DNA of 64,000 nt. Source: an uncultured Bacillales bacterium (GTDB lineage: Bacteria; Bacillota_I; Bacilli_A; RF39; UBA660). Below the pieces are notes generated by a model. That model saw only the letters and a program-made list of their open reading frames with translations, ran no database searches and was not told where the DNA came from. The translations under genes were made by a program, and so were the position numbers. The stretch lies in NCBI GenBank assembly GCA_948433085.1, contig CAOJDP010000002.1, positions 13,579-77,578 of the forward strand, read 5' to 3'. Positions 40,053 through 45,375 of this stretch are shown here, piece by piece. Within the stretch, counting starts at the first letter, position 1; every line of letters begins with the position of its first letter.

Positions 40053-40656
40053 AACGCAAGCCGATGTTGACTTAATAAAATTAGACCCAACTAATGCTAA
40101 TAATAAAGGTGCTTATAATTATACTGACTTAAATAGAATTGAAAATAATTGTAAATATGTAATGAATCTACTAAATAATAGTGGATTATTTTATTATCCA
40201 ATAATAGTCGAAACAAAGACGGATTGGACGATGAAAGATATTCCTCATATTAAAGATATAAATAGAATAAGAAAAAATATTATTACTTTAATAAATGGGG
40301 TTAATTTAGGTGATGAATATAAAGAAATAGAATTTAGTAATACGATGGATTATATAAAAGCTAATATACTTGAAAAAGACTTAGAATTAGTTAAAAATTT
40401 GATGGCTTCGTGTAAAAGAGAAGTTCAAAAATGCAATATGTTTTTTTGTGGAACTAGAGGGCTATATGCTTTACCAAGTGAAAATGAAGTTTATAGTAAA
40501 TTTGGTGAGATGAAAAAATATGTTGGTACATTCTATAGTGGAACTAATGGTATTGGATTGTATTCTAAGCCTAATGAAAATGAAGAAATTGTTGGCTTCA
40601 TAAAAATCCAACAATATACAGGTTTGATATGTTGTGGAAAGGAGTTTAATTTATGA
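40027..40656 (+). CDS. tail-associated hypothetical protein
   Basis: AGGTG RBS; position. Confidence 0.35.
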   Translation: MWQKPIYDRTQADVDLIKLDPTNANNKGAYNYTDLNRIENNCKYVMNLLNNSGLFYYPIIVETKTDWTMKDIPHIKDINRIRKNIITLINGVNLGDEYKEIEFSNTMDYIKANILEKDLELVKNLMASCKREVQKCNMFFCGTRGLYALPSENEVYSKFGEMKKYVGTFYSGTNGIGLYSKPNENEEIVGFIKIQQYTGLICCGKEFNL

Positions 40657-42230
40657 AACAATATGTAAAAACGGATTGGAAAGATAGATTAGTTCAATTT
40701 CCTAATAGGTATAAAGACCAAAATAATAATGTTATAACCTTAACTCAAGACCCGGGAGAAGTAGCCCAAGATGGAACAATGGTTGAAGCTAAGGTGATGA
40801 ATAATATTGAAGAGGGAATTGAACATCTATTTGAAAATCGAAGTTTTGGTTATACTAAAACTTTACTTGTGGCTAACTGGACTAAAAACGCTAGTACAGG
40901 ATACTACGAATATGATATAATAGATGAGAACATTACAGCTCAAACTATTGTTGATGGAATGTTAGATATTGAAAATCAAGCTAAGCTAAATATTTCCTAT
41001 ACTGAATCTTACTTAGGAGGTTTTAAAGTAATTACTACTGAATTACCGAATGAAGAAATTAGTATAACATTCAAATATTCTTTATTGAATAGTGATGATA
41101 AAAATTTAGTTGCTCGAGGAACAATCAATGTGAGTTCTAAAGATACCGATAACTTAAATAAAGTTTATGGTATTAGGAGGTCACTAACAACTTCATCATC
41201 TTCTTGGGAAAGAATCAAAGACGCTGTAGGACTTGTAGCTCACGCTCAAGTAGGGACAACGCCTGTAAGAAATGATTTTGATGAAATATATCCGTGGAGT
41301 GATATTATCTCTTATAACTATGATACGACCGCTCGACAAGTCACAGCGTATTATGGTGACCCAACTTTTAAATTTGATGGTAGTAATGGTGATGTTTTGA
41401 CCAAGATACCTGAGTTTTATTGGAGGAGATATAGAGATAGTAATTATGAATATATTTTAATTTCAAAGAAAAAGTTAGCTGGATTTGTTAAGAGTGAAGA
41501 GTTCTCAGTAGGTCGTTATACTATGTCAGGCTCAAGTTCTAGGGTTTATAGTAGAAGTGGATATGCACCTCTTACTAATGTTAATATAACAAACTTTAGA
41601 AATTATGCTAGAGCTTTGGGAAGTGGATTCGGACAAATGGATTGGCATTATTTTATTTTACAAATGTTGTATCTAGTAGAATATGCTGATTATAATAGCC
41701 AATCTAAATTAGGTAAAGGCTATACTAATGGCTCTCACACAGCTCCTGTAAATAGTGGAGGTTGTGATAGACTTGGAATGAAGTCAGGAAGTGTTGATGG
41801 TACTGATAATACTTCTATGATTTATAGAGGTATAGAAGACATCTTCGGTAATGTATGGCAATTTATTGATGGAATAAATATTAGGAATAGTCAAACCTAT
41901 ATATGTTATGACGCTAATAAATATGCTGTAGATACTTTTAGTGGAAGTTATAAAGCTTTAGGTTATACTAATGCTCCAACTGAGGGATACGCTTCTAAGC
42001 TAGGTTATGATTCCGCTAATCCAATGGTAGCTATTACTACTGAGGCAACTGGAAGTACATCTACTAATATGTGTGATTATTTCTATAGGTCAGCTGATGG
42101 AGATAGAATAGCTCTTGTCGGCGGTGGATATGGCCATGGACTTAGTGCTGGCTTGTGGTTGTGGTCGGTTACTGTGGCTTCGTCTAGCTTGAACTCTTAT
42201 TGCGGTGCTCGACTTCTTAAAACCAGCTAA
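40653..42230 (+). CDS. tail fibre / receptor-binding protein with C-terminal FGE-sulfatase (C-type lectin-fold) domain; DGR target gene
   Basis: GIEDIFGNVWQFIDG resembles the FGE/DUF1566 GNVWEW motif; the C-terminal 35 aa LVGGGYGHGLSAGLWLWSVTVASSSLNSYCGARLL are encoded by the VR. Confidence 0.7.
   Translation: MKQYVKTDWKDRLVQFPNRYKDQNNNVITLTQDPGEVAQDGTMVEAKVMNNIEEGIEHLFENRSFGYTKTLLVANWTKNASTGYYEYDIIDENITAQTIVDGMLDIENQAKLNISYTESYLGGFKVITTELPNEEISITFKYSLLNSDDKNLVARGTINVSSKDTDNLNKVYGIRRSLTTSSSSWERIKDAVGLVAHAQVGTTPVRNDFDEIYPWSDIISYNYDTTARQVTAYYGDPTFKFDGSNGDVLTKIPEFYWRRYRDSNYEYILISKKKLAGFVKSEEFSVGRYTMSGSSSRVYSRSGYAPLTNVNITNFRNYARALGSGFGQMDWHYFILQMLYLVEYADYNSQSKLGKGYTNGSHTAPVNSGGCDRLGMKSGSVDGTDNTSMIYRGIEDIFGNVWQFIDGINIRNSQTYICYDANKYAVDTFSGSYKALGYTNAPTEGYASKLGYDSANPMVAITTEATGSTSTNMCDYFYRSADGDRIALVGGGYGHGLSAGLWLWSVTVASSSLNSYCGARLLKTS
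42110..42214 (+). repeat. DGR variable repeat (VR)
   Basis: Shares conserved blocks ctcttgtcggcggt / gctggcttgtggt / gcttcgtcta / ggtgctcgact with the downstream cassettes; differs from cassette 5 (segment 1) and cassette 4 (segments 2-3) only at their adenines. Confidence 0.8.
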
Positions 42231-42232
42231 AC

Positions 42233-42278
42233 GGGGGTTTGGGGGCGGTCAGCCTCCCATCAATCGACGAAGTCGATT
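42233..42278 (+). promoter_or_regulatory. VR-proximal G/C-rich element (gggggtttgggggcggtcagcctccc) plus hairpin aatcgac-gaa-gtcgatt; candidate IMH / target-recognition structure
   Basis: Only GC-rich tract in the region; perfect 7-bp stem with GAA loop at 42262-42278; absent after the TR-like cassettes. Confidence 0.5.
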
Positions 42279-42340
42279 ATAAAATAAAATTACCTTATAG
42301 GGAATGATGTGTAGTTGAGCACTTGACTAGCCGACAAGTT

Positions 42341-43081
42341 CTCTTGTCGGCGGTTATCACAATGAGCTTTTGAAAAGTGGACTCTTTTGTTTCTTTTTGT
42401 CCTCGCTTTCTTCGTACTCGGGTGGTTGCGGTGCTCGACTTCCTATATTGGGATTTGATGTGTTTTGTACTGATTTAGTGCGTATTTTGATGAGCTCTTG
42501 TCGGCGGTAATTATGCTAATACTTTGAAAGCTGGCTTGTGGTATTGGAATTTCAACGAGGCTTCGTCTAATGCGTGGACTAACATCGGTGCTCGACTACT
42601 TAATTTGTTCTTTGGGACTTGGTGTGTATGAGTGCCTTTAGCGTTGACTTTTCTTGTCGGCGGTCGTTGGATAGATGAGATGAAATGTGGTTTGTGGTGT
42701 TTTACTTTTGATGACGCTTCGTCTATTGCCAATGTTAGTCGAGGTGCTCGACTTATTATATGGGATTTGATGTGTCTAGGGCACTCTTCTAATTGGGTTA
42801 GAACTCTTGTCGGCGGTGCTTGGAACAATGATTCTAGGGCTGGCTTGTGGTTATGGTCGGTTAATGTGGCTTCGTCTAACTTGAACTCTAATTGCGGTGC
42901 TCGACTTATTATATTTAAGATACACATTAAGGGATTTGGTGTGTTTGGTACTGGTGTTTACCTTTACATATCCTTTAGCTCTTGTCGGCGGTAGATATGA
43001 CAATGGACTTAATGCTGGCTTGTGGTATTGGAATGTGAACAATGCTTCGTCTAACTCTAGTGTAAACATCGGTGCTCGACC
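42341..43081 (+). repeat. tandem array of five DGR template-repeat-like cassettes (R1 42341-42440, R2 42495-42597, R3 42651-42753, R4 42804-42906, R5 42979-43081)
   Basis: About 103-bp units about 155 bp apart; each encodes a variant of LVGG-x7-AGLW-x-W-x5-ASS-x6-GARL rich in AAY (Asn) codons; R1 is T-rich and frame-disrupted; spacers share gggatttgatgtgt. Confidence 0.75.
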
Positions 43082-43228
43082 ACTTATATTATTAAAATAC
43101 TTACACATCATCTTCCTCAGCCCTTGCTGAAAATTAGTCGTTATGGGTTGCTTTAGTAGGTTTATCTCCTGAAAGATGGAATTTCTCGAAAGAGTGGCAG
43201 GCAAATATAAGAATTTGGTGACAAACGA

Positions 43229-44299
43229 ATGAAAAGAAAAGGATTTATTTATGAAAAAATAGTTGAGTTAGACAATATTGAATCAGCAATTTATAAAGCT
43301 AGTATAGGAAAAGGTAAGAGAAAAAATGTTGAAAAGATATTAGATTCTCCTACTTATTACGCTATGCAAGTACAAAAAATGTTGAAAGAAAAAAATTATG
43401 TTCCTAGTCCTTATATAGAAATGAAGATAAGAGATGGAGCTAATAAAAAAGAAAGAATAATTTATAAACCTAGATTCTATCCCGACCAAGTCGTACACTG
43501 GGCTTTAATGCTACAAATAGAGCCAATACTTTATAAAGGTATGTATGAGCTATGCTGTGCGTCTATTAAAGGTAGAGGAATCCAAAGGGGAATGAAATAT
43601 TTAAAAAGAATATTAGTTCAAGATAGGAAATATACTAAATATTGTTTAAAGCTCGATGTTAAAAAGTTTTATCCTAGTGTTGATAAGGATATACTAAAGT
43701 CTAAATTTAGAAAGATTATTAAAGACCAAGATACACTTAATTTAATTGATATAATTATTGATAGTGGTAAAGAGGGATTGCCGATAGGTAATTATACCTC
43801 TCAATGGTTTGCCAATTTTTACTTGAAAGATTTAGACCATTATATTAAAGAAGTATTGAAAGTTAAATACTATATCCGCTATATGGACGATATGGTACTA
43901 TTTTCTAATAACAAGAAAGAATTGAGAAAGGTTAAATATGCTATTGATGAATTTTTAACTAAGGAAAAATTAGTTATAAAAGAAAATTGGCAATTATTTA
44001 AAACTGAATCAAGACCAATCGACTTTTTAGGATATAGATTTTATAGAGGATATACTACTTTAAGGAGAAGCAACTTTTTGCGTATTAAAAGAAGAGCAAA
44101 AAGAATCTCTAAAAAAGATGAATTAAATTTCAAAGACGCTTCCGCTATGCTTAGCTATAGTGGTTGGCTGAAACATTGTGATTCATTTAATTATCAACAA
44201 AAGTACATTAAACCATATATTGATTACAAAAAATGTAAGGAGGTTGTAAGAAATGAAAACAAAAAGTACAATAGCTCCCGAAAAATTCAAAATAGGTGA
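43229..44299 (+). CDS. DGR reverse transcriptase
   Basis: RT motifs including YIRYMDDMV (YMDD box) and the DGR-specific IGNYTSQWFANFYL; 356 aa; about 130 nt downstream of cassette R5. Confidence 0.85.
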   Translation: MKRKGFIYEKIVELDNIESAIYKASIGKGKRKNVEKILDSPTYYAMQVQKMLKEKNYVPSPYIEMKIRDGANKKERIIYKPRFYPDQVVHWALMLQIEPILYKGMYELCCASIKGRGIQRGMKYLKRILVQDRKYTKYCLKLDVKKFYPSVDKDILKSKFRKIIKDQDTLNLIDIIIDSGKEGLPIGNYTSQWFANFYLKDLDHYIKEVLKVKYYIRYMDDMVLFSNNKKELRKVKYAIDEFLTKEKLVIKENWQLFKTESRPIDFLGYRFYRGYTTLRRSNFLRIKRRAKRISKKDELNFKDASAMLSYSGWLKHCDSFNYQQKYIKPYIDYKKCKEVVRNENKKYNSSRKIQNR

Positions 44300-44744
44300 T
44301 AGAAAGGGCAACTTAATAGAGGTTGCTTTTTTTGATGATGTAAAGGAGATTCAAGAGGAAGAATCAACTCAGTATGAATATAGTGTTTATACTATCAAAA
44401 CCATCTATAGAGAAGATTTAGAGAGTTATATAAATGGTAATTATGAAGACTATTTAGCACTAGCTAAGGAAACTGATTATCAGTTAGAAGCTAGTAAAGT
44501 TAGAGAAAAAAGAAATGAGCTCTTGGCTGATAGTGATAAGTTTTTATTACTTGATAGACTAGGAATATCTTTACCTAGTGAAATTACAGCAACTACACTA
44601 TTATCTTCTATTAAAGATTTCTTTGATAATTTAAAAGAAGTATTAAATGGTGATTGGGCTGAATATAGGCAAAAGTTAAGAGATTTGACTAAACAAGAGG
44701 GATTTCCTTATAATGTTGAATTTCCTGAAAAGCCTGAGGAATAG
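44253..44744 (+). CDS. hypothetical acidic phage protein (not Avd-like)
   Basis: AGGAGG RBS; overlaps the RT 3' end by 47 nt. Confidence 0.4.
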   Translation: MKTKSTIAPEKFKIGDRKGNLIEVAFFDDVKEIQEEESTQYEYSVYTIKTIYREDLESYINGNYEDYLALAKETDYQLEASKVREKRNELLADSDKFLLLDRLGISLPSEITATTLLSSIKDFFDNLKEVLNGDWAEYRQKLRDLTKQEGFPYNVEFPEKPEE

Positions 44745-45158: not shown

Positions 45159-45171
45159 ATAATTGATAAGA

Positions 45172-45201
45172 AAGAGGGCTAGAGATAGCTCTTTTTTTTA
45201 T
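45172..45201 (+). terminator. rho-independent terminator (agagggcta-gaga-tagctct-T8), related in sequence to the one at 24140
   Basis: Hairpin plus T8. Confidence 0.5.
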
Positions 45202-45234
45202 ATAAATTTTTTTCATTGAAAAGGAGGAATAGAA

Positions 45235-45375
45235 ATGGAAGAAAAAGAAGTAGTTGTTAAAGAAACAACAAAAGAAGAAATTGAAGAATTGGAAGTACAA
45301 ACAACTTTCAATGAAGATGGAATCGACATTTTAGTAGAGGATGGTGAAGTTGAAAATGAATATAAGAACGACTAA
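45235..45375 (+). CDS. small acidic protein (46 aa) overlapping the endolysin start
   Basis: Strong RBS AAGGAGGA 7 nt upstream; ends by overlapping the lysin ATG at 45356. Confidence 0.3.
   Translation: MEEKEVVVKETTKEEIEELEVQTTFNEDGIDILVEDGEVENEYKND

Follow-up and report, generated by a model that had tools for sequence, protein, structure and literature searches.

The 64,000-nucleotide (nt) stretch of contig CAOJDP010000002.1 analysed here (the window; assembly GCA_948433085.1, positions 13,579 to 77,578 of the forward strand) carries a diversity-generating retroelement (DGR) in a prophage of an uncultured gut Bacilli/'Tenericutes'-like bacterium. Five cassettes resembling the variable repeat (VR) of a phage tail protein gene are arranged in tandem upstream of the reverse transcriptase (RT) gene. 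The VR itself is a mosaic of two of these cassettes and differs from its donors only at template adenines. Related elements carry arrays of the same kind, and cassettes at many positions have served as donors of their VRs. It is therefore very probable that several distinct templates feed the one VR. The element as a whole is probably a DGR without accessory genes, in which a tandem library of template modules has grown out of the single template repeat.

Cassettes and the mosaic variable repeat

All features described below lie on the forward strand. Cassettes R1 to R5 occupy positions 42341-42439, 42495-42596, 42651-42752, 42804-42905 and 42979-43080, with start-to-start spacings of 154, 156, 153 and 175 nt, R5 being nearest to the RT gene. 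The coordinates and repeat structure given in the original prediction, which was made from the sequence of the window, held when the sequence was re-read. The anchors TCTTGTCGGCGGT and GGTGCTCGAC occur six times each in the window, always at this locus, compared with chance expectations of about 0.14 and 0.24 matches, and none of 100 shuffled sequences reached six. A repeat search recovered the cassette family; Tandem Repeats Finder did not, because the copies are too diverged. Stretches identical between cassettes do not exceed 14 nt. Four blocks shared by the cassettes had been described as invariant. These are present as blocks, but are not strictly invariant: R3 starts with T and has ATGTGGTTTGTGGT as its block 2, R1 is without blocks 2 and 3, and R5 ends with GGTGCTCGACC.

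According to the alignment and the number of AAY codons in the VR frame, R2, R4 and R5 are template-like, with seven, six and seven such codons, respectively. R1, R3 and the VR have only one each. R1 is adenine-poor and carries a 3-nt deletion in addition to its lost blocks; R3 is also adenine-poor, and its block 2 is diverged. The T-richness reported for R1 can be seen in its composition (33 T in 75 nt), but the in-frame stop reported with it is not there, as the VR-equivalent frame reads LVGGYHNELLKSGLFCFFLSSLSSYSGGCGARLPI without a stop. The earlier suggestion that R1 and R3 may be decaying agrees with these features. Both resemble diversified or decaying copies, and R1 is likely a decayed or archived copy. 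The proposal that the cassettes are distinct templates rather than VR copies can thus be retained for R2, R4 and R5 and not for the copy-like R1 and R3. In relatives, moreover, some cassettes are clean adenine-mutagenised copies of other cassettes.

The VR (42112-42213) covers about 100 nt at the end of the target open reading frame (ORF), starting with CTCTTGTCGGCGGT and ending with GGTGCTCGAC. Here and in the related loci, VRs were assigned to cassettes by dynamic programming, as the cheapest path across all cassettes of the same locus. In the window, this path takes positions 1-35 from R5 and the remainder from R4, and the junction falls within the shared 13-nt block GCTGGCTTGTGGT (42147-42159). 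Compared with this chimera, the VR has eight mismatches in 101 nt (42126, 42133, 42135, 42145, 42161, 42172, 42187 and 42198), four in the R5 part and four in the R4 part, and all of them fall on template adenines. With adenines at only 19 of the 101 positions, the hypergeometric probability of this result is 3.7e-7. Single cassettes fit far less well: R4 alone leaves 8 non-adenine mismatches, in segment 1, and R5 alone leaves 13-14, in the 3' part. A ninth difference, from A to C, is found outside the homology, in the element that directly follows it on the 3' side (42216). The mosaic put forward in the original prediction, with segment 1 from R5 and segments 2-3, the 3' two-thirds, from R4, is therefore confirmed. 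Only the adenine count of R5 segment 1 has to be corrected, to 9 rather than 10 in 21 nt. R2 is not represented in this VR.

Directly after the VR is the element TTCTTA (42214-42219), which resembles an initiation of mutagenic homing (IMH) site; at the same place the cassettes of the window have TACTTA, TTATTA or CACTTA, which resemble IMH*. In the related loci (numbered with L, and their cassettes with c), GACTTCTTA is present in nearly all VRs found, regardless of the donor cassette, the exception being L091 with GACTTCTAA. The constancy of the VR element whatever the donor indicates that the boundary of information transfer lies at or just 3' of GGTGCTCGAC. Folding predicts a GC-rich hairpin or cruciform at 42240-42259, with a 7-bp stem containing one bulge and the 5-nt loop GGTCA, after the VR and after none of the cassettes. 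Its sequence, GGGGGTTTGGGGGCGRYCAGCCTCCC, is kept 3' of the VR in nearly all related loci, with one G fewer in L018. This hairpin appears analogous to the hairpin/cruciform needed for BPP-1 homing, although the loop has 5 nt here (GRYCA) and 4 nt in the published GRNA consensus (PMC3240598). Judged by sequence, both the IMH/IMH* difference and the hairpin downstream of the VR that are expected of a DGR appear to be present. A second predicted hairpin, ATCGACG-AAG-TCGAT (42262-42278), is followed by an A/T-rich tract and may be the terminator of the target gene.

Two other structures involve individual cassettes. A 9-bp perfect inverted repeat, GCCGACAAG/CTTGTCGGC (42330-42354), joins the sequence upstream of R1 with the 5' anchor of R1, and a similar sequence precedes the first cassette of L010 and of L161. 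The anchor of the first cassette could thereby be sequestered in RNA or DNA. The 3' end of R3 and its own anchor form a 7-bp palindrome, AGTCGAG-GTG-CTCGACT (42737-42753), which was flagged as terminator-like in a scan; this palindrome might impede the use of R3 as template or transcription through it. A consensus scan for promoters of individual cassettes gave no more sites than shuffled sequence.

Arrays and donors in related loci

With the RT protein as query, 80 loci from IMG/VR and 80 from GTDB genomes were retrieved, representing 160 of the roughly 590 RT relatives detected. Tandem arrays with the same anchors, comprising 2-10 cassettes, were found in independent IMG/VR contigs and in prophages of GTDB metagenome-assembled genomes (MAGs) whose RT is at least ~76% identical. 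More distant RT relatives have a single template. The occurrence of arrays within an RT sub-clade and of single templates outside it indicates that the array is a lineage trait and not an assembly artefact. Cassettes of 88, 91 and 94 nt occur. The closest RT relatives in genome collections belong to gut MAG prophages labelled uncultured Tenericutes, Bacilli, Mollicutes or Mycoplasma, the best match (95% identical) being UMGS1110. No close relatives were found among deposited phage genomes, in which only stretches of ~270 nt of the RT gene match, at 66-77% identity; the nearest of these DNA matches are RTs of crAss-like phages. An exact search of IMG/VR with the body of R4 also gave no match. 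One 4-cassette array, L097 (QHMG01000017.1; RT 78% identical), comes from a MAG labelled Candidatus Melainabacteria. The other array-bearing hosts are all labelled Bacilli, Tenericutes or Clostridia, and the label of L097 may result from mis-binning of the contig or point to a wider range of hosts.

Among 24 non-identical combinations of VR and array, 174 of 491 donor adenines (35%) differ from the VR, compared with 35 of 1960 other bases (1.8%). The confinement of differences to template adenines, as expected of a DGR, is thus seen both in the window and across its relatives. Donors in these combinations include c1, c2, c3, c4, c6, c7, c8 and c10. Cassette c1 was used in L003 (of seven cassettes), L025 (of four), L083 (of two) and L097 (of four); c2 in L009 (of seven), L019 (of three), L027 (of four) and L085 (of three); c4 in L007 (of eight); c6 in L001 (of eight) and in L010, L011, L091 and L093 (of seven each); c7 in L092 (of seven); and c8 in L089 (of eight). 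The donors of L009 and L083 are partly R2-like, with the same 3' half and the flank TACTTAATTTG. The most direct comparisons come from loci with identical arrays. L091 and L092 share the same 7 cassettes, but the VR of L091 comes from c6 and that of L092 from c7. Array and donor are both the same in L010 and L011, whose VRs differ at adenine sites only, indicating ongoing mutagenesis.

The VR 3' part derives from the RT-nearest cassette in 6 of the 24 combinations, compared with about 5.8 expected under uniform use (a hand tally). Therefore, the RT-nearest cassette is not privileged. Donor cassettes contain more adenines than non-donors (19.2 compared with 16.2; P = 2e-4). With five cassettes here, 2-10 in relatives and several donor positions in use, the single invariant template per VR that is usual for a DGR is not found. 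As a separate observation, the RT-nearest cassette of L001-L009, L045 and L082 is 94 nt long and adenine-poor, with one extra codon and no AAY codons (for example, L001 1774-1877). It is almost identical between phages and was never the VR donor in the loci examined.

Three further mosaic VRs with adenine-only differences were discovered: L014 (c10 then c3), L018 (c4 then c3) and L081 (c4 then c1). Junctions lie in or beside GCTGGCTTGTGGT or the equivalent block. In all four mosaics, including that of the window, the donor of the 5' part is located downstream of the donor of the 3' part, and in three of the four it is the last cassette (P ~0.03, our own estimate, n = 4). The combination of combinatorial and mutagenic diversification envisaged in the original prediction is thus borne out by donors at any position, adenine-specific changes and additional mosaics in relatives.

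The templates themselves have not stayed constant. The closest relative, L081, has a c3 that is distinguished from its c1 by 10 differences, all at adenines. For L001, c6 is the source of the 3' part of c3 (4 adenine differences, 0 others) and c7 that of segment 1 of c6 (3 adenine differences, 0 others). A search of metagenome contigs with the flank of R5 found one short contig, OFGJ01009686.1 (L161; positions 1-1825), which corresponds to window positions 42196-43201. R1-R4 and their spacers are identical in this contig; in place of R5 there is a copy of R3 mutagenised at adenines (5 adenine changes and 1 other), and the flanks of R5 are intact on both sides. It is also common for first cassettes to have the TTCTTA of the VR, to be poor in adenine and to vary between arrays that are nearly identical elsewhere. 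These adenine-specific derivatives suggest that mutagenised sequence enters the array over evolutionary time. R1 and R3 of the window fit this picture of an array receiving sequence. The route of entry could be occasional homing into cassettes or the copying of VR sequence into the array. A further peculiarity of L161 is that its 'VR' is preceded by at least 4 more cassette units with GGAGCTCGAC anchors and spacers bearing the motif described below, and not by a tail-protein gene, which could mean that two arrays were truly rearranged or fused, or that the contig was assembled as a chimera.

RNA elements, a working model and its rivals

A 14-nt motif with the general form GGGAYTTGRTGTGT is found in every spacer, including that between the VR and R1. 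Its reverse complement, here called the dock (ACACATCATCTTCC), occurs singly at 43103-43116 and is the 3' strand of a long-range helix supported by covariation. The motif copies are AGGGAATGATGTGT 5' of R1 (42299-42312; 12 of 14 pairs with the dock), GGGATTTGATGTGT 5' of both R2 (42450-42463) and R4 (42762-42775), GGGACTTGGTGTGT 5' of R3 (42614-42627) and GGGATTTGGTGTGT 5' of R5 (42931-42944), the dock being able to pair with any of the five. In RNAfold predictions for 42927-43228, the helix between copy 5 and the dock is present in both the minimum-free-energy and the centroid structures.

Relatives with a single template also have a single motif, which directly precedes the template and lies 125-200 nt 5' of the dock. 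Their docks and motifs read, in that order, GCGCGTTATATTCC and GGGATATAACGCGC in L047, GCATTTTATATTCC and GGGATATAAAATGC in L052, GCACTTTAAAATCC and GGGTTTTAAAGTGC in L055, GCGTTCCGGAATCC and GGGTTCCGGAGCGC in L064, and CCGCGGCTACATCC and GGGTGTAGCCGCGG in L068. Motif and dock change together in these loci, with full compensatory changes, for example in the pairs of L047 and L068. Across 42 distinct motif/dock pairs, compensatory changes are found at 11 of the 14 base pairs, G-U pairs included, and none of 500 shuffles reached the same score; cognate pairs also outscore non-cognate pairs (P = 1.8e-10). Within the arrays, the motif reaches ~2 bits at 9 of its 14 positions among 88 unique inter-cassette spacers, compared with 0-0.9 bits in the remaining spacer sequence. 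At least 12 of 14 pairs with the dock are retained by 79 of the 88 spacers, and the distance from the motif to the next cassette has its mode at 24-27 nt. The conservation of the motif within drifting spacers indicates that each copy is under constraint.

A partial dock copy, ACACAT, is located in the R4-R5 spacer (42922-42927), where it can pair locally with motif copy 5. Similar partial copies precede the last and sometimes the penultimate cassette in L001, L003, L007, L009, L010 and L014. The partial copy was probably left behind as a scar by the duplication from which the array arose. A reading of the motif/dock repeat as a shufflon or DNA inversion system was rejected: the cassettes of close relatives are never in minus-strand orientation, covariation of the repeat is that of an RNA helix, G-U pairs included, and there is no recombinase gene beside the array.

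One nucleotide after the dock begins the Rfam RT-18 RNA (RF03021), at 43118-43211 (cmscan 55.4 bits against a gathering threshold of 41.3; E = 1e-8), which ends 17 nt upstream of the RT start codon. Both its score and its adjacency to the RT gene place it in this family. It is composed of a 4-bp hairpin, CAGC-CCTT-GCTG, the sequence AAAAU, a long interrupted stem and the tail AATATAAG (43204-43211). No further copies were found in 42000-43400 at E <= 10. RT-18 is likely the priming and RT-binding module, present once. RNAs of the RT type have been proposed to serve DGRs, and RT-10 is the template-RT spacer of BPP-1 (Weinberg et al., PMC5737381).

Every cassette keeps a CTTATAT-like 3' flank able to pair with the RT-18 tail, as seen in CTTATATT after R5 (43083-43090) and its equivalent TTATATTT after R4 (42909-42916). 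The pairing is anchored on an invariant CTTAT/ATAAG core, the adjacent, variable pair being UA (27 sequences), AU (19) or CG (3). The covariation of flank and tail is 0.161, compared with 0.076 in shuffles, of which 0 of 500 reached the observed value, and cognate pairs surpass non-cognate pairs (P = 1.9e-4). Thus, flank and tail form a second, moderately supported helix, weaker than that of motif and dock. By analogy, the 3' flank is a candidate for the template strand of a template:primer duplex. A related observation is that the VR element TTCTTA is complementary to UAAGAA (43208-43213), the 3' part of the tail, in the same register in which the cassette flanks pair with the 5' part, AAUAUAAG. 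As a speculation, priming RNA attached to the cDNA could help to recognise the VR and so set the direction of transfer.

These elements can be compared with the cryo-EM structure of the BPP-1 ribonucleoprotein (RNP), in which a 'cPRT Stop' duplex between template-upstream sequence and spacer RNA is followed by a short stem-loop, unpaired adenosines, a single-stranded 'thumb ring' and a long RT-binding stem (bioRxiv 10.1101/2023.10.23.563531). That duplex is required for any cDNA synthesis and marks its end point, and comparable duplexes are predicted in 207 of 278 DGRs (Handa et al., same source). The order of elements in the window, motif:dock duplex, hairpin CAGC-CCTT-GCTG, AAAAU and RT-18 long stem, is that of BPP-1. 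The helix bracketing the template has 14 nt here, next to the ~11-13 bp of 'cPRT Stop' duplexes, and is likewise followed by a stem-loop and unpaired adenosines. By analogy, we infer that the motif:dock helix stops or licenses cDNA synthesis.

A model in which RNA modules compete for one priming module is plausible and is held with slightly more than even confidence, by analogy with BPP-1. Each module would consist of the 14-nt motif, a spacer of ~25 nt, a cassette of ~100 nt encoding an alternative tip of the tail protein and the A/U-rich 3' flank. It would be a complete copy of the ancestral template module, the array having arisen by tandem duplication. All modules would share the dock, RT-18 and the tail AAUAUAAG. 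The array would be co-transcribed with the RT-18 region, and in each RNA molecule the motif of one module would pair with the dock as the equivalent of 'cPRT Stop'. The 3' flank of the docked module would then pair with the RT-18 tail, forming the candidate template:primer duplex, and the RT would copy this one cassette into cDNA with misincorporation at adenines. Finally, the cDNA would replace the VR, the recipient being marked by TTCTTA and the GC-rich hairpin, which only the VR has in the window. Conversion would begin at the 3' anchor GGTGCTCGAC, and any shared block of 8 nt or more might serve as its end point. If another cassette were used later, only the 3' part of the VR could thus be overwritten, which would give the mosaic of R5 (5') and R4 (3'). 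Over evolutionary time, cDNA or VR sequence would also enter cassettes and renew the library.

Several points weigh against this interpretation. All data come from consensus assemblies. In some loci the VR has several non-adenine differences from every cassette (7 in L007; 10 in L085). Motifs were located by best complementarity, which inflates the paired fraction; such a search cannot create the compensatory changes in distant loci. The strength of flank:tail pairing does not predict the donor cassette (P = 0.21). Seen from the long RT-18 stem, the candidate primer strand is on the 3' side, whereas in BPP-1 it is immediately 5' of the stop strand; the assignment of the priming duplex, made by analogy, could be wrong. 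Avd (Pfam 23S_rRNA_IVP), present in about 74% of DGRs, had no match among the 15 proteins scanned around the element, which represent part of the prophage, and details of the RNP may differ from BPP-1. The absence of Avd is no bar to DGR membership, since accessory-gene-free DGRs ('architecture A') make up 29% of the set of Wu et al. (PMC5758913). Lastly, the ancestral position of the motif 5' of the template equally allows initiation at the last cassette with read-through to alternative stops.

According to that read-through scheme, the main rival, synthesis always starts at R5 and runs 5'-ward through the cassettes to the dock-paired motif, after which an internal cassette of the long cDNA anneals to the VR through its anchors. 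The order of motif, template and dock in single-template relatives is in its favour, as are the function of the BPP-1 duplex as a stop point (bioRxiv 10.1101/2023.10.23.563531), the fairly tight spacing between motif and following cassette, the single RT-18 and the lack of influence of flank:tail strength on donor choice. However, the last cassette supplies the VR 3' end, where conversion starts, no more often than expected under uniform use, and the last cassette of the L001-L009 clade, with 3 additional nt, is never a donor. Clean replacement from an internal cassette would also need the trimming of long non-homologous flaps on both sides, and every cassette retains a flank able to pair with the RT-18 tail. 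The unbiased use of positions and the clean replacement of single cassettes disfavour read-through, and it is considered improbable. In BPP-1, information transfer starts at a fixed site in the GC-rich 3' element, and the 5' crossover needs at least 8 nt of identity, internal sites being usable (PMC3240598). By this rule, a second homing event from another cassette, ending in the 13-nt block, would yield mosaics like those observed. A single event could produce them as well, if the RT started on R4, copied segments 3 and 2 and switched at GCTGGCTTGTGGT to segment 1 of R5. The consistent downstream position of the 5' donor, so often the last cassette, agrees with such a switch, and template switching was weighed by Guo et al. 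as a possible route of 5' integration (PMC3240598). Yet the two-step, 3'-anchored partial conversion gives the same pattern and is experimentally documented, with 8 nt or more being enough (PMC3240598). Moreover, since those last cassettes are homologous, the bias towards them could result from shared ancestry, the VR having once been derived from the last cassette, or from selection for a segment 1 of the RYDNG type, and only four mosaics are in the sample. By analogy with BPP-1, two successive partial homing events anchored at the 3' end are favoured modestly over one, and the single-event origin is regarded as possible but rather unlikely.

The remaining alternatives deny that the array is a set of working templates for this VR. 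If only one template worked and the others were inert duplications or fossil VR copies, the VR would have acquired their sequence by DNA recombination or gene conversion. The adenine-poor and partly decayed R1 and R3, the shared anchors, which could support recombination, and the cassettes that are copies of other cassettes are compatible with this. However, DNA gene conversion would not place differences on donor adenines, and in many loci VRs differ from internal cassettes at 8-13 adenines and 0-1 other positions (L009/c2, L010/c6, L027/c2, L083/c1). The conservation of the motif in every unit, within drifting spacers, further argues for selection on each unit, and this alternative is considered highly unlikely. 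The same low standing applies to the possibility that the extra cassettes each serve remote VRs elsewhere in the genome. Reports exist of remote targets and of DGRs with 2-6 templates that each have their own VRs (PMC6642488; PMC5758913), but in the 64-kb window the anchors occur at this locus only, and the one adjacent VR uses different cassettes in different relatives. An artefact from a collapsed or mis-joined repeat, raised in the original prediction, can practically be dismissed. Metagenome assemblies are involved, and the short contig L161 is oddly structured; nevertheless, the same architecture and order of homologous cassettes recur in dozens of independent assemblies from different studies, long MAG contigs among them. 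The arrays of L091 and L092 are identical, and the short stretches shared between cassettes are below usual assembly k-mers.

Gene context, known systems and significance

The target gene (40653-42230), whose last ~35 codons are the VR, encodes a 525-aa phage tail protein. The protein matches phrog_5302 'tail protein' in PHROG (E = 3.9e-58), and its C-terminal part matches PDB entry 5VF4 (E = 3e-4), including the GG..G.AGL stretch equivalent to the VR. This entry is TaqVP, the DGR variable protein of Thermus aquaticus, with a C-type lectin fold. Thus, a C-terminal VR in a ligand-binding protein, as is typical for DGRs, is found here as well, the lectin-type fold being assigned by sequence match. 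The RT (43229-44299; 356 aa) matches Pfam RVT_1 (E = 9e-17) and PHROG 1423 (E = 1.7e-109) and contains LPIGNYTSQ and YMDD. The former fits the I/LGxxxSQ signature of DGR RTs. In a scan of NCBIfam, which is without a DGR-specific RT model, all matches of the RT were under their cut-offs.

A tail-fibre assembly or chaperone-like gene (44253-44744) matches Pfam Phage_tail_APC (E = 7.7e-14) and PHROG tail fibre assembly families. It is a neighbour and not demonstrably a component of the element. This ORF begins 47 nt before the end of the RT ORF (44253-44299). From this arrangement, the two genes may be translationally coupled, and the DGR appears to have been inserted between the tail-fibre gene and its chaperone. 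Other neighbours are a tape measure protein, further tail genes, a holin and an endolysin-like ORF, which places the element within the tail-fibre/lysis module of the prophage. Between the holin and endolysin-like genes, a weak match to the Rfam caiA RNA (45165-45237; 32.6 bits against a gathering threshold of 55.5; E = 0.014) is probably due to chance.

Compared with canonical DGRs (BPP-1 type; 'architecture A' of Wu et al. 2018), most of the basic plan is unchanged. The RT gene lies beside non-coding template sequence, the VR occupies the 3' end of the gene for a tail protein, the tip of which is C-type-lectin-like, differences are adenine-specific and templates contain AAY codons. Behind a GC-rich 3' anchor comes a short element in which VR and template differ, a GC-rich hairpin follows the VR, and structured RNA between template and RT gene is combined with a long-range duplex bracketing the template. 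What differs is the presence of 2-10 tandem templates, each with its own 5' stop strand, for one common downstream RNA module. VRs can be mosaic, templates are not invariant, no Avd was found, and the candidate primer strand is 3' of the RT-binding stem instead of 5' of the stop strand. More than one template per RT is also known from the MetaCSST survey, in which Stenotrophomonas sp. SKA14 has two template repeats and six VRs (PMC6642488). In those cases, however, the templates have their own VRs in different genes, some being atypical with few adenine-specific changes, whereas here the array feeds one VR interchangeably and in combination. Within the incomplete coverage of our search, DGR surveys and full-text literature contained no description of a tandem template array feeding one VR or of mosaic VRs. 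The tandem library of interchangeable templates, the mosaic VRs and the mutable templates set the element apart from described DGRs.

Outside DGRs, a close parallel is gene conversion from silent cassettes, as in Neisseria pilE/pilS, Borrelia vlsE, the mosaic VSGs of trypanosomes and the chicken pseudo-V genes. These systems also combine one expressed locus with nearby, promoterless partial cassettes that share conserved blocks, and produce segmental mosaics. The adenine-specific differences between VR and donor indicate a route through RNA and an error-prone RT here, and not the recombination of DNA copies of the pilS or vls type. Transfer by RT thus adds point mutagenesis to the choice of cassette. 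In retrons, the a1/a2 inverted repeats of the msr-msd RNA bracket the template, with priming from a 2'-OH. As in retrons, inverted repeats flank the template and bring the priming module close; however, the RT belongs to another lineage, the cDNA rewrites a gene, and several 5' strands are available for one 3' strand.

In the usual DGR, one invariant template rewrites one or more VRs, and diversity is limited to the adenines of that template. A tandem library widens the accessible sequence space, as non-adenine positions and even codon number can be swapped, segments can be combined, and each resulting state can be hypermutated. This resembles the cassette gene conversion and somatic hypermutation of vertebrate antibody genes, but in a phage tail fibre. 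The existence of several 5' stop strands for one dock offers a natural test bed for how DGR RNAs choose and bound their template. The mutable cassettes also raise the possibility that templates evolve through the activity of the element itself. A wider and more tentative interpretation, given somewhat less than even probability, is that the array is a self-renewing, RNA-addressed library, in which modules compete through alternative helices, folding sets template choice, and cassettes act as both donors and recipients, so that receptor-binding variants that were successful or recent would be archived in the form of new templates. If true, such a library would be a heritable memory layered on hypermutation, would overturn the rule of a single, invariant DGR template, and would represent a natural design for multiplexed, programmable mutagenesis in vivo. 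The findings are relevant to engineered DGR mutagenesis, for which multiplexed templates are a stated goal (bioRxiv 10.64898/2026.07.21.739853), and to the evolution of host range in phages of the abundant uncultured Bacilli of the gut.

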